Positions 1,516 to 37,428 of a stretch of DNA of 38,954 nt are shown in pieces. The notes under the pieces are model-generated. The model ran no database searches. It was not told where the DNA came from and saw only the letters and a list, made by a program, of their open reading frames with translations. The DNA lies in contig CALMYA010000035.1 of assembly GCA_937873535.1 (NCBI GenBank), positions 1-38,954 of the forward strand. The letters are read 5' to 3'. Position numbers and translations under genes: made by a program. Numbering within the stretch: position 1 is the stretch's first letter; each line of letters begins with the position of its first letter. The stretch comes from an uncultured bacterium (GTDB taxonomy: Bacteria > Patescibacteriota > Minisyncoccia > Phycocordibacterales > CAIZLB01).

Positions 1516-1529
1516 GTAGTGAGGACTAC

Positions 1530-1688
1530 GTATAACTCAGGCGATAAAGAGATGGGGGCGGACAGAACATCCTGTGGGGAGACTTGCGAGCTGCAGCGAG
1601 CACGAGGAATTTTTCAGCAGAAAAATATCCGTGCTCCCCACAGGATGTTCTGGTAGCCTCTTGAATCTCTTTATCGCCTGAGTTATAC
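1530..1688. repeat. Family-A nested palindromic element, copy 1
   Basis: Outer perfect 23-bp inverted repeat (1530-1552 / 1666-1688) and inner perfect 18-bp inverted repeat (1563-1580 / 1635-1652). The enclosed core is near-identical to the reverse complement of 22022-22090. Confidence 0.75.
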
Positions 1689-1689
1689 T
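1661..1689 (+). promoter_or_regulatory. Candidate nusB promoter TTGAAT-N17-TATACT, embedded in the right arm of the family-A element
   Basis: TTGAAT at 1661-1666 and TATACT at 1684-1689, exactly 17 nt apart. The nusB ATG at 1709 is 19 nt downstream of the -10. Confidence 0.45.
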
Positions 1690-1708
1690 TAATCCGAACA
1701 ACTTTGAT

Positions 1709-2799: not shown

Positions 2800-3492
2800 A
2801 TGGATTTAAGCGTTTTCGAAGCCGCAGTCGGCGTCACATTTAAAGATAAAAACCTGCTCAAACAGGCGTTTATTCATCGTTCATATTTGAATGAGAACCG
2901 CTCTTCGAAACTTGAGCATAACGAGCGTATGGAATTTCTAGGTGACGCGGTACTTGAGCTTGTCATAACTGAATATTTGTATAAAAAATATCCTGAAAAA
3001 AATGAGGGTGACCTTACTGCGTATCGTTCATCGCTTGTTAACTCTGTAACACTTTCTCAGGTTGCCGAGAAAATAGGCATGAATTCATTTTTGCACTTAT
3101 CGAAGGGCGAAGCTAAAGACACCGGCCGTGCCCGCCAATTTATTCTTGCCAACACATTCGAGTCGTTCGTAGGTGCAGTATATTTAGACCAGGGCTACGA
3201 CGCTGCACAAGGGTTCATTTCACGCCAGCTTTTCGAACTTATTAACGACATTGTCGCCAACCGCGGCTTTATTGATTCTAAAAGCCTTTTTCAGGAAGAA
3301 GCTCAAGAGCGAGTTGGCATTACTCCGGCATACAAGCTTATGAAAGAAACCGGCCCCGACCACAACAAAATTTTCACTGTTGGTGTGTTTTTACGAGATG
3401 ATTTGGTTATAACAGGCGAAGGGAAGTCGAAGCAAGAAGCCGAGCAGGTTGCCGCCCAGAAGGCGCTTGAGAGCAAAAAGTGGACTGCATAA
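2800..3492 (+). CDS. rnc: Ribonuclease III
   Basis: NERMEFLGDAVLELV signature, plus a C-terminal dsRBD (GPDHNKIFTV...GEGKSKQEAEQVAA). Confidence 0.93.
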   Translation: MDLSVFEAAVGVTFKDKNLLKQAFIHRSYLNENRSSKLEHNERMEFLGDAVLELVITEYLYKKYPEKNEGDLTAYRSSLVNSVTLSQVAEKIGMNSFLHLSKGEAKDTGRARQFILANTFESFVGAVYLDQGYDAAQGFISRQLFELINDIVANRGFIDSKSLFQEEAQERVGITPAYKLMKETGPDHNKIFTVGVFLRDDLVITGEGKSKQEAEQVAAQKALESKKWTA

Positions 3493-6465: not shown

Positions 6466-8568
6466 TTATACTACGAGTTGAAACTCCAGCATCTTGTTAT
6501 CCAAATCGGCAGCAATAAGCTTCACTTTCACTGGGTCGCCAATATTAAATTCCTTTTTAGTGTTCTGGCCGACAACTTTGTAGTTCTTTTTATCTACAGT
6601 GTAGAAGTCGTCAGGCTTCAAATCGCGTAAGCGAATAAGACCTTCGGCTTTGGCTTCGGGTTCTTCAATATACATGCCCCAGTCGGCAATGCCTGAAACT
6701 TTTGCATCAATAATTTGGCCTACTTTGTTCTGCATGTATTCAACCTGTTTGTATTTAATAGATGCGCGCTCGGCGTCGGCGGCCTCAACTTCACGACGCG
6801 ATGAGTCGAGGCATATTTTTTCAAGAGTGACGGCCATATGTGCCGGAACTGTTTTGCCTTCAAGTAAAATTGCAAGAATTCGATGCACCATGAGGTCGGG
6901 GTAGCGGCGAATTGGCGACGTAAACTGGGTGTAGAAGTCGAATGCCAAGCCGAAGTGGCCAGTGTTGGCGGTTGCGTATGTGGCTTTGGCCATCGAGCGA
7001 AGCGTGGCAATTTTAATAACAGCCTCTGCAGGTGAACCTTCAACCTGACGTAGTAAACTTTGTACATCTCGTGGGTTTATATTTTTTGTAGGATTGAAAT
7101 CGAAACCAAGAGCGCGTACAAAAATGCCGAGGTCTTGAAGGCGGTCGTAGTCGGGTTCGCTGTGAACGCGGTAGACACCGAGGCTCTGTGCCGAGCCGCT
7201 AGCCTTACCGTCGGCACCATGAGTTTTTGCAGCCAAATTCTTGCTTTTAGCATGAATGTATTCGGCAACTTCGCGGTTAGCAAGAAGCATATACTCTTCT
7301 ACAAGTTTGTGCGCATCGAGGCGCTCTTTTTTGTATACAGCAATAGGCTTGCCGGTCTCGTCGAGCTTAAATTTTATTTCTGTTGTTTCAAAGTCGATAG
7401 AACCAGCCTTCTGGCGTTCTTTGAGCATGAGCTTTGCGATGCGGTTCATTTCTTTGAGGCGTTCAGAGTACTGAGCAGCATCTGGCGCTTGCGATTTGTC
7501 ATCCAAAATTTCTTGAACTTCTTCGTATGTGAAGCGACGGTCAGAATGCATAATTGTGCGGCCGAACCATTCATCTAATATTTTGCCGTCTTTAGTAGTT
7601 TTAAAAATAGCAGAAAATGCAAAGCGATCTTCGTGCGGGTTCAAGCTGCACTGGCCGTTTGAAAGTACGTGGGGGAGCATAGGAATGGTTCTATCTACCA
7701 AATATACCGAGAAAGCACGCTTGCGAGCTTCAATATCGAGCGCGGTGCCTGGGCGAACAAAATGCGCTACATCGGCAATGTGTATGCCAATTTCGTAAAA
7801 TGCGTCAGGAAGGGGAGTGCCGGGCTTAATGCTGTCATCGATATGAACATTGTTGTCGGCACCGTTACCCTCTTTAATGCGCTCTTCTGGCGCAAGTTCA
7901 CGAATTGAAAGGGCATCGTCAAAGTCTTTAGCGTCGAATGGGTCGATGGTGCAGGTGAAGATGCCTCTTACATCGCGCCGTGAGGCGACTTCTTCAGGTG
8001 AAGGTGTCAGAGAACTAAACTCTTTAGCCGCTTCATCGGCTTCATCAAGCACTTCTTGCTCAAAGCCGGTGTCAAAACCTCGTTCAAGAACAATAGAGCG
8101 CATTTCAGCATCGTTATCGCCCTTCTCACCAATAATTTCTAAAAGATTACCTTTGGCATAGCGGCCGTCTTCAACTTCCCAGTCTGTAATTTTAGCGACA
8201 GCCTTCAGATTTTCTTTAAGGCTGCTTAAACCTTGGCCACCAGCTTGGCCGCTTTCATCACCAACAATGTCGATACTTATATTTAAACGTCTATCGTCGG
8301 GAAGAAGAATATATTCGGCACCTTGCGCTTCTGTATTTTTTATAATAGTACCCACGAACTGCAATTTCTTTCGTTCAACAATTTTAATAACCTTGCCGTA
8401 TGTATCGCCTTTAAAACCTGCGTATGTTTCAATTTCAACAGTGTCGCCTGGGAGGGCAATGTTGACGTCGTTAGGCTCAACAGGAATGCTTTCTTCTAAG
8501 CCTTCGATGTCTACGAAACCTTTGCCTTTTGAATTGAGGGAAATTACGCCCGTGCGGTGATTATGCAT
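6466..8568 (-). CDS. rnr: Ribonuclease R (RNB family 3'-5' exoribonuclease with a C-terminal S1 domain)
   Basis: RNB motifs DPFDAKDFDDALS, HIADVAHFV and TSPIRRYPDLMVHR. N-terminal cold-shock-like domain and C-terminal S1-like domain. Confidence 0.92.
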   Translation of the reverse strand: MHNHRTGVISLNSKGKGFVDIEGLEESIPVEPNDVNIALPGDTVEIETYAGFKGDTYGKVIKIVERKKLQFVGTIIKNTEAQGAEYILLPDDRRLNISIDIVGDESGQAGGQGLSSLKENLKAVAKITDWEVEDGRYAKGNLLEIIGEKGDNDAEMRSIVLERGFDTGFEQEVLDEADEAAKEFSSLTPSPEEVASRRDVRGIFTCTIDPFDAKDFDDALSIRELAPEERIKEGNGADNNVHIDDSIKPGTPLPDAFYEIGIHIADVAHFVRPGTALDIEARKRAFSVYLVDRTIPMLPHVLSNGQCSLNPHEDRFAFSAIFKTTKDGKILDEWFGRTIMHSDRRFTYEEVQEILDDKSQAPDAAQYSERLKEMNRIAKLMLKERQKAGSIDFETTEIKFKLDETGKPIAVYKKERLDAHKLVEEYMLLANREVAEYIHAKSKNLAAKTHGADGKASGSAQSLGVYRVHSEPDYDRLQDLGIFVRALGFDFNPTKNINPRDVQSLLRQVEGSPAEAVIKIATLRSMAKATYATANTGHFGLAFDFYTQFTSPIRRYPDLMVHRILAILLEGKTVPAHMAVTLEKICLDSSRREVEAADAERASIKYKQVEYMQNKVGQIIDAKVSGIADWGMYIEEPEAKAEGLIRLRDLKPDDFYTVDKKNYKVVGQNTKKEFNIGDPVKVKLIAADLDNKMLEFQLVV

Positions 8569-16790: not shown

Positions 16791-17770
16791 TGTACAGTTA
16801 ACCATATGGGGTGACAGTTCTGCTAGGATTGGGGTGACTAAGCTTAACCAACCTTAATTTAAAGCATATGGCAAACAAAAAGCAGATACCGGCATACCCA
16901 GCGAAGGTTAGGCAGAAGTGGTATTTTCTGGTCGACAAGGTCGGAAAGACAGTGGATGAAGTGTGTGACATATATATGATTCCAAGGAAGACCTACTACA
17001 AATGGAAGAAAATTGATTTAGGCAGCAGGAATCATATTCCAAAGAAAGAGCACCCTGACACAAAACTTAAAGGTGAAGTGAAAGAGTTTGTAATTAAAGA
17101 GAAATTGCGAATTAACTACGGACCGAGAAAAATGAAGCTCTTGTTGAAGCGCAGATTCAATATCACTGTTTCAACTACAGCAATCTACAACCTGTACCTC
17201 AAGAAAGAGTTAATACGAAGACCCCAGAAAAAGCTTCCTTGGTACAAACCAATCAAAGAGGTGGTGATACCAGAGATGCCGGGAGAGGTGGTGCAAATGG
17301 ATGCGAAGTATGTGTGGGAAAGCGGGACACGTCGATATCAACGTACATTCATTGACATATTCACAGGCAGACAGTTTGCCACTGTTACAAACTCAATGAC
17401 TTCTGAAGATACGGTGAATGCTTTTTTGGAAGCAGAACGATATTTTCCTTTCAAAATTTTAGGTGTACAGAGTGACAACGGATCTGAAAACCGAGGAGAG
17501 TTTCATCAACATGTAGGTCAGAAAGGCATCGCTCACTACTTCATCCCGAAATCATCTCCGACATGGGATGGAGCAGTTGAAAGAGCACATGGAGTGATTG
17601 ATCAGGAATATTACCTTAATCCTACGAGACCTTGGAAAACATTGTCAGAGTATTTAGAGTTCTACAATTACGAAAGAATACATCTCGGCAAGTATTTGAA
17701 CGGAATGACACCACAAGAAAAATGGCAGCAGTGGCTATCCACAGTGTCACCCTTGAAGGTTAACTAAACA
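16791..17770 (+). mobile_element. IS481/IS3-superfamily-like insertion sequence (~980 bp) with a 5-bp target duplication
   Basis: Imperfect terminal IRs: TGTACAGTTAACCatatgGGGTGACA (16791-) and the reverse complement of 17742-17770, TGTTTAGTTAACCttcaaGGGTGACA. TGT...ACA termini. GTTTT direct repeats at 16786-16790 and 17771-17775. One DDE transposase ORF fills the element. Confidence 0.8.
16868..17767 (+). CDS. DDE (rve / integrase-core) transposase
   Basis: N-terminal HTH. Catalytic region VVQMDAKYV...QSDNGSENRGEF...WDGAVERAH (D, D, E). The ORF ends inside the right IR. Confidence 0.88.
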   Translation: MANKKQIPAYPAKVRQKWYFLVDKVGKTVDEVCDIYMIPRKTYYKWKKIDLGSRNHIPKKEHPDTKLKGEVKEFVIKEKLRINYGPRKMKLLLKRRFNITVSTTAIYNLYLKKELIRRPQKKLPWYKPIKEVVIPEMPGEVVQMDAKYVWESGTRRYQRTFIDIFTGRQFATVTNSMTSEDTVNAFLEAERYFPFKILGVQSDNGSENRGEFHQHVGQKGIAHYFIPKSSPTWDGAVERAHGVIDQEYYLNPTRPWKTLSEYLEFYNYERIHLGKYLNGMTPQEKWQQWLSTVSPLKVN

Positions 17771-17776
17771 GTTTTG

Positions 17777-17848
17777 TGACCCTACCGGGAGTCGAACCCG
17801 GCTTCTCTGCTTGAAAAGCAAATGTCCTAACCGATAGACGATAGGGCC
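17777..17848 (-). tRNA. tRNA-Glu (anticodon UUC), CCA not encoded
   Basis: Reverse complement folds as a cloverleaf: acceptor GGCCCTA/TAGGGTC, anticodon loop TTTTCAA, T-arm CCGGG-TTCGACT-CCCGG. 72 nt. Confidence 0.9.
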
Positions 17849-17923: not shown

Positions 17924-18013
17924 GGAGAGATGGCTGAGTGGTTGAAGGCACCAGTTTCGAAAACTGGCATGGGGGAAACCCTATCGGGAGTTCAAATCTC
18001 CCTCTCTCCGCCA
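17924..18013 (+). tRNA. tRNA-Ser (anticodon CGA), long variable arm, CCA encoded
   Basis: Acceptor GGAGAGA/TCTCTCC, anticodon arm CCAGT-TTCGAAA-ACTGG, variable arm CATGGGGGAAACCCTATC, T-arm GGGAG-TTCAAAT-CTCCC, then G-CCA. Confidence 0.92.
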
Positions 18014-20174: not shown

Positions 20175-21998
20175 ATGGTACAAAAAATCATCGAGTCTAC
20201 TTACTCTAGAAGCAAAGACTTCATGGCAATGTTCGTATACGCCGTGCGATTTTGCTATTTCAAGCCTGCTCGCAAGCTTTTTTGGGGGCTTATTGTTTTT
20301 GCTGCCGGTGTTGCCTCGCTTCCTCTTATAAGCGCTAAAGTTACCGGAGTAATAGTAGATACACTCACCGAAAAGCTTCAGCTTGGATCATTCGATACGG
20401 CCACGTTCAACTATGTGATTTTACTTACCGTGCTTTGGGCGTTTATCGATAACTTCGACAGCATTTTCAATACGGCAAAACGATATATTCGAACGCTTTG
20501 GACGTATCGAACTCAAATTGAATACGAGCTTAAAATTCTGGAGAAACGAATTGAAATAGACAGCGCTACTAGAGAGCAGGAATCATACAGAAACCTGGAA
20601 CAGCATGCTTTCGAAAAGGGCCCTTTTGTTGCTTGGAATTTGGCGCAAGGGTTTTTTAGGTATTGGGAAATATCTGTAGGATTTTTGGTGGCCGCTTTCA
20701 TTTTGGGTTTTAGTAATTTTTGGGTGCTTATTATTCTGGTAATGACGGCTCTGCCGCAGCTTGTCATCAATATAAAATTCGGCGAGAAAACATACGGTAT
20801 TTGGACGAGGAAGGGAGGCAAGGTCCAACGACTTTATTACTATTTCAGAAGCCTAATCGGTACAGAAACACTTGAATTAAACAACACAAGTAGAGTATTT
20901 TACGATAAAGTTGAAGGAATTCACCGCGACACTCAAGGAAGAATTCACGCCGAAGAAAAACGCCGTCTCGCATATACCTTTGCCAGCGACTTCATAAGTC
21001 TTCTGGGTGTTTTAGCATCTTTTTTGCTTATTGTGCTATCTGTACTTTCAGGTGCTGCAACCATTGGCGCCCTCATATTCCTGCGCGCATCAATCTACAA
21101 GTTTTCAAGCGCCTTGGAGCAGCTCATTGAGGAAGTAACGAACGACTACGAATATGTTTTGTACACCAAAGACCTCAAAGAGTGGTTTGCCATCAAACCG
21201 TTTGTAAGCGCTAAAACGGGCGACCCGTTTCCATTGCAAAAGGCCGCGCCCCTTATTGAGTTCAAGAATGTATCTTTTTCATACCCGGGTGAGAGAAATA
21301 AAGTGCTCAAAAATGTAAATCTTACAATTCAGAGCGGTGAGCGAATTGCTCTCATCGGCAACAACGGGGCAGGGAAGTCATCCCTCATTAAATTGTTGCT
21401 GAGAATTTACGACCCTACTGAAGGCGAAGTTACCGTTAACGGCAAAGATATAAAAACTATAAAAGTACGCGATTGGCGCGCGAATATTTCAGCATTATTG
21501 CAGGAATATCTGGTATTTAACATGAAAACAAAAGAGTCTATTTGGGCAAAAGTGAACCCCGACAAAGGCAGTAAAGCCGGCGCAATTGAGGCAGCCACAG
21601 CCAGCACCGCCTCAGACTTCATCGATAGATGGGACGACAAATATGAAGAGCAGATCGGCAAGGAATTCGGCGGCAAAGAGCTTTCTCGCGGCCAAAAACA
21701 GAAACTTTCGCTTGCCAGCACCCTGTACCGCGACACACCAATACTTATTCTCGACGAACCTACATCCGCCATCGACTCCGAATCTGAACTCTCAATTTTC
21801 AAAGCACTCGAGAAACTGCCAAAGTCGAAAACAATTGTATTCGTATCGCACGACATGGCCGTAGTAAGAAACGCCGATAGAATCATCGTGCTCAAAGACG
21901 GCGTATTAATAGAAGACGGCAGCCATGCTGAATTATTCGAAAAGAAGGGCTACTACAGCCGAATTTACAGCGAGCAGGTGGAGGCGATGACGAAGTAA
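20175..21998 (+). CDS. ABC exporter, fused permease/ATPase (MsbA-like half transporter)
   Basis: N-terminal 6-TM domain. Walker A GNNGAGKSS, signature LSRGQKQKLSLA, Walker B ILILDEPTSAID, H-loop VSHD. The start is uncertain (ATG 20175 overlaps a TATAAT). Confidence 0.88.
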   Translation: MVQKIIESTYSRSKDFMAMFVYAVRFCYFKPARKLFWGLIVFAAGVASLPLISAKVTGVIVDTLTEKLQLGSFDTATFNYVILLTVLWAFIDNFDSIFNTAKRYIRTLWTYRTQIEYELKILEKRIEIDSATREQESYRNLEQHAFEKGPFVAWNLAQGFFRYWEISVGFLVAAFILGFSNFWVLIILVMTALPQLVINIKFGEKTYGIWTRKGGKVQRLYYYFRSLIGTETLELNNTSRVFYDKVEGIHRDTQGRIHAEEKRRLAYTFASDFISLLGVLASFLLIVLSVLSGAATIGALIFLRASIYKFSSALEQLIEEVTNDYEYVLYTKDLKEWFAIKPFVSAKTGDPFPLQKAAPLIEFKNVSFSYPGERNKVLKNVNLTIQSGERIALIGNNGAGKSSLIKLLLRIYDPTEGEVTVNGKDIKTIKVRDWRANISALLQEYLVFNMKTKESIWAKVNPDKGSKAGAIEAATASTASDFIDRWDDKYEEQIGKEFGGKELSRGQKQKLSLASTLYRDTPILILDEPTSAIDSESELSIFKALEKLPKSKTIVFVSHDMAVVRNADRIIVLKDGVLIEDGSHAELFEKKGYYSRIYSEQVEAMTK

Positions 21999-22115
21999 AG
22001 GGTGCATTTCCTGCGTGTATTTGGGAGCACGGATATTTTCCTGCTGGAAAATTCCTCGTGCTTGCTCCGTCGAGTCTCGCAAGTCTCCCAAATACACGCA
22101 GGAAATGCACCCTTT
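21997..22115. repeat. Family-A palindromic element, copy 2 (core inverted relative to copy 1)
   Basis: Perfect 31-bp arms 21997-22027 / 22085-22115. The left arm starts within the ABC gene's TAA stop. The core matches the reverse complement of 1576-1640. Confidence 0.75.
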
Positions 22116-22156
22116 ATCTACGCCAGCATTTTTGATACACTAGCTTCTACAACTAT

Positions 22157-23464
22157 ATGAGCAATCTCAAAAACCGCGTTCACGCCAAAGACATCTCCCA
22201 ATATGCCGGGAAAGATATTTTAATTGCCGGTTTTGTGCACACTTTGCGCGTTCAGAGCAAGATCATCTTCCTTATTCTTCGTGATGCATCAGGAACAGTT
22301 CAAAACATCATTGAAGCTAAAGATGAAGCAACCTTTGAATTGGCAAAAGGGCTTTCAGCAGAATCTGTTGTTTCTATATTAGGAATCGTGAAGGAAGCAC
22401 CTCAGGCTCCGGGCGGTTTTGAAATTGCTGTATCTAAAATTACAGTTCTTTCGGTGGCAAACCCAGAACTGCCTATTCCTATAATTATAAAGGGTGGCGA
22501 TGAAGAGACAGAAGCCCCTACGCGTTTCGACTACCGCTGGATAGACTTGCGAAAGCCAGAAAAAGCTAAAATTTTCAAGGTATGGACGGAGCTCGAAAAA
22601 GGCTTCCGTACATATTGGGATGAAAACAAATTTGTGCAGCTTTACAGCCCGTCGTTTATGTCGACACCGTCAGAAACTGGTGCTGAAGTCTTTGAAGTAA
22701 AATATTTCGACAAAAAAGCTTATCTCGCACAGTCACCACAGTTTTATAAGCAGATGGCCATTGCCTCCGGTTATGAGCGAGTGTTCATGGCTGGGCCGGT
22801 TTTTCGCGCAGAAGAATCGTTTACGGCGCGCCACCTTACAGAATTCAGCGGCTGGGACTTTGAAATAGGCTATATAGATGACCATCATGACATTATGAAC
22901 GCAGAAGAGGGGATGCTTGTTTCGGGATTCAAAGCGGTAGCTGAAGCTTTTCCTGATATGAATGTGCAAATTCCTACTATACCGTTCCCGCGCATCACAA
23001 TGCTTAAAGCTAAAGAAATTCTCAAGAAAGAAGGTGTACCAAGCGGCGAACCGCACGATCTTTCACCAGAAGAAGAGCGTGCCATGTGTGAATATGTAAA
23101 AAAAGAGTACGACCATGACTTCGTATTTATAACCGACTATCACAAGTCAAAGAGCGCTTTCTACCACATGCGCCACCCAGAAAACCCCGACTACTCACGT
23201 CGTGCTGACCTTTTGTATAGAGGAATTGAAGTTACGACGCTTGCCCAGCGCGAACACCGAATTGATATTCTTGAGAAACAAGCTATTGAAAAAGGCATGA
23301 GCCTTGATGCTTTGAAAGACTACTTGAACTTCTTCCGTTGGGGCTGCCCTCCGCACGGTGGCGCCGGCATTGGCCCGGGCAGGCTTATTATGAAGCTTCT
23401 CGACCTGCCGAACGTGCGCGAGGCAACATATGTGCCGCGCGACGTGAAGAGGCTGAATCCTTAA
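22157..23464 (+). CDS. aspS: Aspartate--tRNA ligase, archaeal/eukaryal type (class IIb, 435 aa)
   Basis: OB-fold N-terminus (FLILRDASGTVQNI), motif 2 FRAEESFTARHLTEF, motif 3 HGGAGIGPGRLIM. The ELPIPI...RWIDLRKP pattern favours AspRS over AsnRS. Confidence 0.82.
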   Translation: MSNLKNRVHAKDISQYAGKDILIAGFVHTLRVQSKIIFLILRDASGTVQNIIEAKDEATFELAKGLSAESVVSILGIVKEAPQAPGGFEIAVSKITVLSVANPELPIPIIIKGGDEETEAPTRFDYRWIDLRKPEKAKIFKVWTELEKGFRTYWDENKFVQLYSPSFMSTPSETGAEVFEVKYFDKKAYLAQSPQFYKQMAIASGYERVFMAGPVFRAEESFTARHLTEFSGWDFEIGYIDDHHDIMNAEEGMLVSGFKAVAEAFPDMNVQIPTIPFPRITMLKAKEILKKEGVPSGEPHDLSPEEERAMCEYVKKEYDHDFVFITDYHKSKSAFYHMRHPENPDYSRRADLLYRGIEVTTLAQREHRIDILEKQAIEKGMSLDALKDYLNFFRWGCPPHGGAGIGPGRLIMKLLDLPNVREATYVPRDVKRLNP

Positions 23465-27915: not shown

Positions 27916-29025
27916 ATGCACGTAATGACTCCAAAAAAAGTAGACCGTCCGTTCCTCATACTCACATCAATTCTTGTTGTTTTGGGCTATTTAATTTTTT
28001 CTTCTGCAGCGCTAGGGCTTGTCACCAGAAATGCAGGGCTTTTTCAGGCGGTTACGTTCAACCAGGTAGTGCTCGGGCTTATATGCGGCAGCATCGCCGC
28101 GTTTATTTTTTCAAAAATTAGCTACCAGCATTGGCGAACATACGCATTTTATATTTTTCTTTTTTCAGCCCTGATGATGGTTCTTGTTTTCATCCCGCAT
28201 GTCGGCCAATTTCATGGCGGCGCACGGCGCTGGATAGGCATAGGCTCATTCAGCTTTCAGCCGGCCGAATTTTTTAAGATTGGTTTTGTGATGTATGCCG
28301 CAGCATGGTATGCGTCTGTAAAGGCCAAAGCTGCAACCTTGAAATTCGGCGCAGCGCCTTTTCTTGTTCTTATTGCCATTGCCGGTGCCCTCATCTTGGC
28401 GCAGCCTGATACCGACACTTTTCTAGTTATTGCCGTAGCCGGCCTGGCCATATATTTTGCCGCGGGCGCTCGTTGGCGAGACATTCTCATAATGGGTTTG
28501 CTTGGCGCTGTTTTAATTACAGGAATTGCCATGACTCGGCCCTACGTGATGCAGCGCATTCAAACATTCGTTGACCCTTCAAAAGACCCTACAGGCAGCG
28601 GCTATCAAATTCAGCAGTCGCTCATCGCCATCGGTTCAGGCGGCTTATTCGGCCGCGGCTTCGGGCAGAGCATTCAAAAATTTAATTATCTTCCCGAACC
28701 GATAGGGGATTCAATATTCGCTGTAGCCTCAGAAGAATTTGGTTTTCTAGGCTCGGTTTCCATTATTCTTTTATATATTTTGTTCGCATTCCAAGGCTTC
28801 CGCATCGCCCTTCGCGCCCCCGACGCCTTCGGCACATATTTGGTTCTCGGCTTGGTCATTCTTATTACAGTGCAATCATTTTTAAATATTTCAGCCATGC
28901 TCGGTATTACGCCACTTTCAGGTACGCCGTTATTATTCATTTCGCATGGAGGAACCGCGCTGTTCTTTGCGCTGTCGTCGGTTGGAATTATTTTAAATGT
29001 TTCGAGGTATCAGAAGAAGAAATAA
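27916..29025 (+). CDS. ftsW: SEDS-family peptidoglycan glycosyltransferase FtsW/RodA
   Basis: FQPAEFFKI, QPDTDT, GYQIQQSLIAIGSGGLFGRGFGQS, LPEPIGDSIFA. The start may be ATG 27925 (7 nt after TATAAT). Confidence 0.9.
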   Translation: MHVMTPKKVDRPFLILTSILVVLGYLIFSSAALGLVTRNAGLFQAVTFNQVVLGLICGSIAAFIFSKISYQHWRTYAFYIFLFSALMMVLVFIPHVGQFHGGARRWIGIGSFSFQPAEFFKIGFVMYAAAWYASVKAKAATLKFGAAPFLVLIAIAGALILAQPDTDTFLVIAVAGLAIYFAAGARWRDILIMGLLGAVLITGIAMTRPYVMQRIQTFVDPSKDPTGSGYQIQQSLIAIGSGGLFGRGFGQSIQKFNYLPEPIGDSIFAVASEEFGFLGSVSIILLYILFAFQGFRIALRAPDAFGTYLVLGLVILITVQSFLNISAMLGITPLSGTPLLFISHGGTALFFALSSVGIILNVSRYQKKK

Positions 29026-29095
29026 CAAATACCCCATATTCATGAGCATGCGTATCTGCGATATGCTCATGAATATGGGGTATTTGTTATTTCTT
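29017..29095. repeat. Family-B palindromic element (33-bp perfect stem, 13-nt loop), doubling as the ftsW 3' hairpin
   Basis: Arms 29017-29049 / 29063-29095 are perfectly complementary. The loop is GCGTATCTGCGAT. The left arm contains the last ftsW codons and the TAA stop (29023-29025). Confidence 0.75.
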
Positions 29096-37304: not shown

Positions 37305-37326
37305 CCTTCTACCCTTCCTTACAACA

Positions 37327-37363
37327 CAAAAACCGCACCTACATTTCGTAGGTGCGGTTTTTG
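37327..37363. terminator. Bidirectional rho-independent terminator
   Basis: AAAAACCGCACCTAC-atttc-GTAGGTGCGGTTTTT, sitting between convergent genes. Confidence 0.8.
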
Positions 37364-37428
37364 TATATCTTGTTTGTGCTTATCTTTTCTAGTGATTTAG
37401 CGATACCTAGAACCTTAGTGGCTCTATT

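Follow-up and report, generated by a model that had tools for sequence, protein, structure and literature searches.

The element at positions 21996-22116 of contig CALMYA010000035.1, from an uncultured member of the Patescibacteriota, belongs to a previously undescribed repeat that is found across the ultra-small Patescibacteria. The stretch analysed, which is referred to below as the window, comprises 38,954 nucleotides. Each unit of the repeat (family A) consists of a long stem, P1, whose sequence is specific to the locus and which carries a conserved module of approximately 57 nt that forms a three-way junction on one strand only. As judged from the searches described below, the repeat appears to match no known family. 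[quoted passage not shown] Patescibacteria account for a large part of bacterial diversity, and to our knowledge almost nothing is known about their non-coding RNA and mobile DNA.

The element (copy 2) is 121 bases long and is composed of two 32-nt arms (21996-22027 and 22085-22116), which are 100 % complementary to each other, with the 57-nt core between them. An earlier note on this DNA had described perfectly complementary arms of 31 nt, the left one starting in the TAA stop codon of an ABC exporter gene; the arms proved to be one pair longer, and the start is as described, since the exporter open reading frame (ORF) ends at 21998 and the arm begins at 21996. On the minus strand, which bears the core, the 5' arm of P1 (22085-22116, assigned by complementarity and fold) is followed by the ACUUG junction and the short hairpin P2 (22061-22084; CUC-GACG-GAG with GA/AA flanks, assigned by the family alignment and the covariance model R1), by the helix P3 (22028-22060; CACG-A-GGAAUUUUCC-AGCA-GGAAAAU-A-UCC-GUG, with a bulged A and an AGCA loop) and by the 3' arm of P1 (21996-22027), which overlaps the stop codon. 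This strand folds with an energy of -78.5 kcal/mol (z = -12.5 compared with shuffled sequences), and the 121 bp contain no ORF of their own.

A second copy in the window (copy 1, plus strand, 1563-1652) has perfect inner arms of 19 bp (1563-1581 and 1634-1652), the junction with P2 at 1582-1600 and P3 at 1601-1633. The arms of the two copies are unrelated except for GGGAG beside the core. The core of copy 2 is inverted with respect to that of copy 1, as had been claimed, with 1595-1638 matching the reverse complement of 22023-22066 over 44 nt at 93 %. The same note had reported that the only two differences within a 39-nt block form a compensatory change and that the bulged A is preserved; both statements were confirmed, the two differences falling in one predicted pair that is U-A in copy 1 and C-G in copy 2. 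Within the window, the 33-nt pattern of this hairpin, CACGAGGAAUUUUYCAGCAGRAAAAUAUCCGUG, has exactly two matches, at 1601-1633 (+) and 22028-22060 (-), and is expected 0.00 times (100 shuffles).

The family was collected by one pattern scan of species-representative genomes, in which 23 core bases were fixed and the middle of the hairpin was left free. At least 115 further copies were obtained, nearly all of them from metagenome-assembled genomes (MAGs) labelled as Patescibacteria (Paceibacteria, Nomura-, Taylor-, Giovannoni-, Wildermuth-, Zambryski- and Nealsonbacteria, Minisyncoccia and generic 'Saccharibacteria'); the window, itself a metagenome contig, is identical to a contig in ENA, the homologues of its genes are named Paceibacteria and Nomurabacteria, and a search of viral contigs gave no copy. 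Among the matches listed, several genomes are represented by three to five copies each. The counts of contexts and ORFs given below refer to 117 copies, while covariation was assessed in an alignment of 106 sequences. The covariance model R1, built from 106 copies, scores copy 1 at 88.9 bits on the plus strand and copy 2 at 87.7 bits on the minus strand, compared with 14.8 bits for the opposite strand of copy 2 and approximately 14 bits for the other strand overall, and an R1 search of the window gave no third copy. In the fetched loci, the model detects additional diverged, tandem and truncated copies, with no more than three in 8 kb. At locus L023 (1531-1733), two family-A cores stand in tandem, each preceded by a direct repeat of approximately 50 nt, and the first core's 5' arm has its pairing partner in the 3' arm of the second. 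A comparison of the window with Rfam 15 gave only two tRNAs, and the repeat had no match at the gathering threshold; with the arms included, only generic hairpin models of the microRNA type were hit, far below threshold, while the core alone gave nothing at E <= 10. The full-text literature was searched, with incomplete coverage, for the core sequence as well as for repeats of Patescibacteria that are palindromic or in frame, and no paper describing the repeat was found.

The alignment of the family defines the fold of the core, in which the long P1, the short P2 and the bulged P3 with its AGCA loop meet in a three-way junction. Read on the core strand, the consensus comprises the locus-specific P1, an (A/C)CUUG junction, an N-GA step, a P2 of 4 bp closed by a GACG or GACUG loop, GA-G and P3 (CACG-A-GGAA-NNNNN-C-AGCA-G-NNNNN-U-A-UCC-GUG), followed by the return strand of P1. 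Standard pairs occupy 92.6 % of the cells of the alignment, compared with 73.0 % after shuffling, and the covariation score is 0.506 compared with 0.147; none of 500 shuffles reached the observed value on any measure, and sliding the partners by 1-3 columns lowers pairing to 31-56 %. All 13 scored pairs of P1 vary on both sides, the pairs of P2 covary (GC, CG, UA and AU), and the five free pairs of P3 are paired in 100 % of the sequences, as UA, AU, CG or GC. The unpaired bases of the core are conserved. In diverged copies found by R1, pair 46-68 changes from G-C to C-G, which supports the pairing of GGAA with UAUCC around the bulged A. The earlier note had proposed, from two copies, that the internal hairpin is itself under selection and that covariation should be tested statistically on more of them; the test described here is strongly positive and bears the proposal out.

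The mismatches in P1 indicate which strand is concerned. Arm ends were called with symmetric scoring, all non-Watson-Crick pairs being treated alike, and the mismatches comprise 71 G.U compared with 13 A.C (p = 8e-11) and 70 G.A compared with 7 C.T, with a tandem G.A/A.G step recurring in P1 of many copies 5-7 pairs from the junction. The asymmetry is kept where the core is antisense to the host gene (17 vs 4 inside ORFs and 15 vs 1 in intergenic copies). Mutation bias fails to explain it: in 69 of 103 loci (p = 5e-4), the core-bearing strand is locally the richer in C, and such a composition would promote mismatches of the opposite type. The strand specificity of these mismatches, antisense copies included, thus shows that the strand carrying ACUUG...CCGUG folds, as RNA or as single-stranded DNA, and that its fold is under selection.

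The gene contexts of the repeat are mixed. In 41 copies the core runs antisense to both neighbouring genes and in 26 it runs sense; 24 copies are flanked by divergent genes and 8 by convergent ones. The earlier note had claimed that the orientation of the core is independent of the direction of the flanking gene, and this holds for the family as a whole, in which all four arrangements occur and the orientation is inverted between species at the RsmE and IscS sites described below. Across 104 family-A loci (L003-L117 and the window), an orientation bias is seen, the folded-core strand being more often antisense than sense to neighbouring genes. Proteins encoded within 3.5 kb of the 117 copies were clustered, and the clustering recovers host genes only.

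Long housekeeping ORFs contain 27 of the 117 copies, all of them in frame and free of stop codons, with both orientations and five reading frames represented. The hosts include PheT (six genomes, in the same linker), IscS/NifS (four genomes), TsaD (three genomes) and RsmE (two genomes), as well as DnaE, Dus, UvrD/PcrA, RseP, PyrD, GlmM, RNase HII and a methyltransferase. These copies are located at surface linkers of essential proteins, where they would be read as an additional peptide, such as HGYFSAEKFLVLAPSR in PheT or IscS. The five frames that are used are open in 81-100 % of cores, compared with 45 % of shuffled cores, while the sixth, which is never used, is open in 18 %. With concatenated core translations as the query, a protein search yielded only 15 matches, all of them weak. 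The TsaD gene of the window does not contain the insert that other genomes have at that site.

The PheT linker was surveyed in 105 orthologues, using a query from which the insert had been deleted. The linker, which precedes the C-terminal FDX-ACB domain (P0136-P0253; L142, L143, L144), is a hot spot of insertion. At least nine orthologues contain family A, in three states of frame or orientation; 26 of the 105 have other inserted peptides, of at least four recurrent types, and nothing was recognised in 70. The other peptides are of the types ..LLQPxAGTFRLQN.., ..AFALGDxGQGTH.., ..AQVLGSP..HSQKHTG.. and ..FLNGLAGVG..NRGPEK.., and the DNA of three of these insert types also forms long hairpins. 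These sequence comparisons suggest that several families of in-frame palindromic repeats may exist in these bacteria. Two apparent splits of PheT, on inspection, turned out to be scaffold gaps (runs of N) and not elements. The idea that different PheT insert families have outer arms in common, which would imply swapping of cores within one palindrome, was considered and is not clearly supported by the DNA.

Copies at orthologous sites provide information on the age and the inversion of the element. Among the six PheT genes, nucleotide identity is 95 % in the core, approximately 70 % in the arms and 62-67 % in the flanking coding DNA. In RsmE, the site of the element is common to loci L103 and L082 and its arms are homologous, but the complete unit has opposite orientations in the two, and a U.G wobble beside the core travels along with it; the same pattern of inversion is observed in IscS (L075 compared with L087, L089 and L114). 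Traces of movement were found in one MAG, C24_metabat.bin.140, in which five copies have common arms of approximately 34 nt and unrelated flanks, with direct repeats of 8-9 bp at the ends of three of the five and the core of one copy inverted relative to the asymmetric arm ends. Three copies in this MAG have an identical G.U in their arms, from which it follows that both arms were copied as one block; regeneration of one arm from the other during copying is thereby ruled out. Within the fetched loci, the arm-end sequence of this MAG occurs only at the elements themselves. Cores are more alike within a genome than between genomes, even where the arms are unrelated (4.5 vs 7.9 differences, p = 2e-4), which fits either lineage-specific variants or exchange between copies. 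Perfect arms of at least 20 bp are found in only 10 of the 117 copies, and copy 2, with 32 bp, is one of them; its perfect arms point to a recent insertion or to a recent correction of the arms against each other.

Under the reading of a non-autonomous palindromic repeat, the element would spread as a whole double-stranded unit with the aid of an enzyme supplied in trans and, once inserted, would persist for a long time. The arms would then drift under a pairing constraint, through G.U intermediates, and the unit would occasionally be inverted by recombination between the arms. The centre would remain nearly unchanged because its folded strand would be recognised by a protein, that strand being most likely a transcript and less likely single-stranded DNA.

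Several known systems share a part of these properties. RPEs are palindromic repeats of approximately 100-150 bp in a reduced genome, inserted in frame in unrelated housekeeping genes and read as an extra peptide (PMC10969869). The Patescibacteria repeat is likewise palindromic and in frame in unrelated housekeeping genes, and it also coexists with other families, at least five insert types being present in the PheT linker. On the other hand, its core is read in either orientation and in five frames, and because of this it encodes no single conserved peptide; what is conserved in it is a three-way junction at the centre, with covariation and with wobble pairs specific to one strand, the arms being locus-specific, and its hosts are Patescibacteria rather than Rickettsiales. 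The likeness drawn here is one of described properties. Bacterial MITEs are small, non-coding, multi-copy elements that form stable stem-loops and are mostly intergenic, although sometimes fused in frame to ORFs, and their defining feature is a pair of terminal inverted repeats, conserved among the members of a family and matching a parent insertion sequence (IS) (PMC10969869). Family A resembles such elements (QMITE, Correia, ERIC) in being shorter than 500 bp, in containing no transposase gene, in its copy number (two in the 39 kb of the window, with at least 115 further loci) and in the one MAG with common arms and 8-9 bp flanking duplications; it differs in that arms are common to copies only within some genomes, as in the five copies of that MAG.

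Repetitive extragenic palindromes (REPs) are palindromes of 20-40 bp whose arms are a conserved sequence with GTAG or CGTC heads, recognised by a REP-associated tyrosine transposase (RAYT), and we know of none that are found in frame inside genes. Family A is similar to REPs and to the REP doublet-forming hairpins (REPINs) in comprising extragenic palindromes that form long single-strand hairpins, in the importance of the structure of one strand and in its dispersal in tens of copies. It differs in its arms, which vary by locus, and in the occurrence of in-frame copies; no RAYT-like gene or cluster was found among the proteins neighbouring the copies.

A number of observations weigh against a mobile repeat. 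The architecture of a classical MITE is reversed, in that the arms vary and the centre is conserved across several candidate phyla, and no parent IS with matching ends was found among the neighbours within 3.5 kb of the 117 copies or by the arm ends in the fetched loci. No transposase, reverse transcriptase or nuclease is enriched among the clustered neighbouring proteins, and a full-length relative sharing its ends was not found among the fetched loci. Flanking direct repeats show no excess over a shuffled-flank control in 111 copies, for which the calling of ends is imperfect, and none are seen at copy 2. The centre is conserved, with G.U in excess of A.C, even in old orthologous copies, which indicates selection in place and is not expected of a purely selfish repeat that is now immobile. 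Moreover, the search pattern itself inflates the apparent conservation, since its 23 fixed core bases left 8 of the 13 P3 pairs unable to vary in this set.

The strongest rival of the mobile-repeat explanation is a functional host RNA, a possibility that we hold only tentatively. Each locus would be a small RNA gene or precursor of a multi-copy structured non-coding RNA with a cellular function, the stem serving as a processing or stabilising handle (for example, for RNase III) and the core binding a protein or a ligand, while the copies inside ORFs would merely be tolerated. The strong covariation, the conserved unpaired bases and the G.U and G.A bias towards one strand, including in copies antisense to the host gene, are all consistent with such an RNA, as are the contrast between the core and the surrounding essential gene in PheT and the recurrence of the tandem G.A motif in P1 at a fixed distance from the junction; an RNase III is encoded in the window (2800-3492). 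However, promoter-like sites upstream of the element are not in excess of those in the opposite direction, and the copies inside ORFs leave no room for a promoter or terminator of their own. Decayed, truncated, tandem and nested copies, and the expansion in one MAG with flanking duplications, are habits of a repeat and not of a gene.

A bolder version of either explanation is rather doubtful in our estimation. According to it, the 57-nt junction would be a new functional RNA specific to Patescibacteria, protein-binding or catalytic, present in tens of copies per genome, including antisense copies in essential genes, and kept by selection at each locus; or it would be the recognition handle of an undescribed transposition system that reads the folded centre and not the ends.

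It is very improbable that copy 2 acts at the 3' end of the ABC exporter gene as an intrinsic terminator or as a hairpin that stabilises the mRNA, even though the hairpin begins in the stop codon, the plus strand is very stable (-77.1 kcal/mol), and A-run/T-run flanks resembling those of bidirectional terminators occur in some members (L123) and in all hairpins of a second family, family B, described below. Neither of the sequences after the stem, UAUCUACGCC on the plus strand and CUUCGUCAUC on the minus strand, is a U-run, and a terminator scan reports none for the full hairpin. Across the family, convergent gene ends are the rarest context, 27 copies are inside ORFs, and copy 1 is already preceded by a canonical terminator (1487-1516); nor would a terminator need a conserved, covarying three-way junction of 57 nt that works in either orientation. 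The earlier preference for a DNA element or an independently transcribed RNA over a plain terminator is thus upheld, and copy 2 probably neither terminates nor regulates the ABC exporter and aspS genes in any specific way.

An invertible DNA switch, with the arms as recombination sites and flipping of the core altering local expression, is hardly more than conceivable. Perfect inverted arms do surround a segment that is present in both orientations in the window, and differences in orientation are seen between orthologues (RsmE and IscS) as well as among the paralogous copies of one MAG. However, the arms differ at every locus and so could not be recognised by a site-specific invertase; no gene for a serine or tyrosine recombinase is present in the window, the sole candidate being an ORF with an rve domain approximately 4 kb away. 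In addition, the core has no promoter-like site, a flipped form of the copy 2 locus was not found in metagenome contigs, and the covariation of P2 and P3 would have no role in a double-stranded switch.

Equally remote is an intervening sequence that is cut from the message or skipped by the ribosome, for while P1 joins the flanks and copies are situated at surface linkers of essential proteins, both orientations occur inside ORFs although the conserved fold is on one strand only, all 27 intragenic copies keep the frame without a stop codon, the sole closed frame is never used, and the two apparent splits of PheT are scaffold gaps.

What sets the repeat apart is the combination of a conserved centre with free ends, a one-strand fold that is selected whatever the direction of the host gene, and units that are in frame and can be flipped inside essential enzymes. 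It is a concrete candidate for a new functional RNA or a new mode of moving DNA. The annotation of Patescibacteria gains a ready covariance model for it, and the repeat explains some of the odd insertions in their housekeeping proteins. It is also a warning for gene callers and assemblers, as a contig can break inside the palindrome.

Contig breaks of this kind are illustrated by L002, a Logan contig from an independent assembly of the source organism, whose position 1 is the start of the right arm of copy 2, so that the break falls inside the element; contigs can end at long perfect palindromes such as this one. Copy 2 lies between the ABC exporter gene (20175-21998, plus strand; Pfam ABC_tran, 9.9e-33), whose stop codon it overlaps, and the aspartyl-tRNA synthetase gene aspS (22157-23464, plus strand), which starts 40 nt downstream and was identified by the Pfam domain tRNA-synt_2, an OB-fold anticodon-binding domain and the names of homologues. 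In the closest aspS relatives (76-78 % identity), the element is absent from the aspS locus. Reconstruction of the empty site failed, the aspS loci of these relatives being too diverged to align. The closest relatives have a leader of 240-360 nt 5' of aspS (L119, 2641-3000; L121, 2763-3000), with GGTGGTACCGCG and a terminator-like hairpin, while in the window genome a family-A element stands in place of this leader, only 40 nt before aspS. The leader was suspected to be a T-box from its resemblance to one, and Rfam gives no match at the gathering threshold.

Copy 1 is nested inside a second, outer inverted repeat that was absent from the earlier note (1516-1702, plus strand; 38 nt at 87 % overall, with asymmetric internal loops and a perfect section of 23 bp, 1531-1553 and 1665-1687). 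The canonical terminator hairpin lies directly upstream of this copy, and the right outer arm contains a promoter-like site, TTGAAT-17-TATACT (1661-1689), 20 nt before nusB. The RNase III gene is situated 1.1 kb downstream of copy 1, after a nusB-NUDIX fusion gene, and an RNase R gene (6466-8568) is nearby. The long perfect stems of family A, if transcribed, would be RNase III substrates.

Family B is represented in the window by two hairpins, at 10368-10486 and 29017-29095, in which a conserved apex of 25 nt is flipped from one to the other on long, locus-specific arms. The apex reads GAGCAU-AUCGCAGAUACGC-AUGCUC as RNA and GAGCAT-ATCGCAGATACGC-ATGCTC as DNA. A metagenome scan gave 20 more stretches with this apex (L122-L141), from three related assemblies, each with arms of its own, most of them perfect. 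The arms have A-run/T-run ends and lie between convergent genes, as in bidirectional terminators. Family B is thus similar to family A in that locus-specific, mostly perfect long arms carry a conserved apex in both orientations, while its apex is a simple 25-nt hairpin and not a three-way junction, and its known range is narrow, being limited to three related assemblies.

Other features of the window include a perfect hairpin of 17 bp with a 5-nt loop (37326-37364), flanked by an A-run and a T-run (ACAAAAACCGCACCTAC / GTAGGTGCGGTTTTTGT), which has no conserved apex and looks like an ordinary bidirectional terminator. The ORF with an integrase core (rve, DDE) is located at 16868-17767, beside two divergent tRNA genes (17777-17848 and 17924-18010); it may belong to an IS or an integrated element, and neither flanking inverted repeats nor a connection with the hairpin families were seen. 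Finally, imperfect direct repeats with a 12-nt phase (GAAGC.GCTCCTGC.CC..) are present at 9450-9637 in overlapping ORFs and resemble a low-complexity coding repeat rich in Ala, Pro and Glu.

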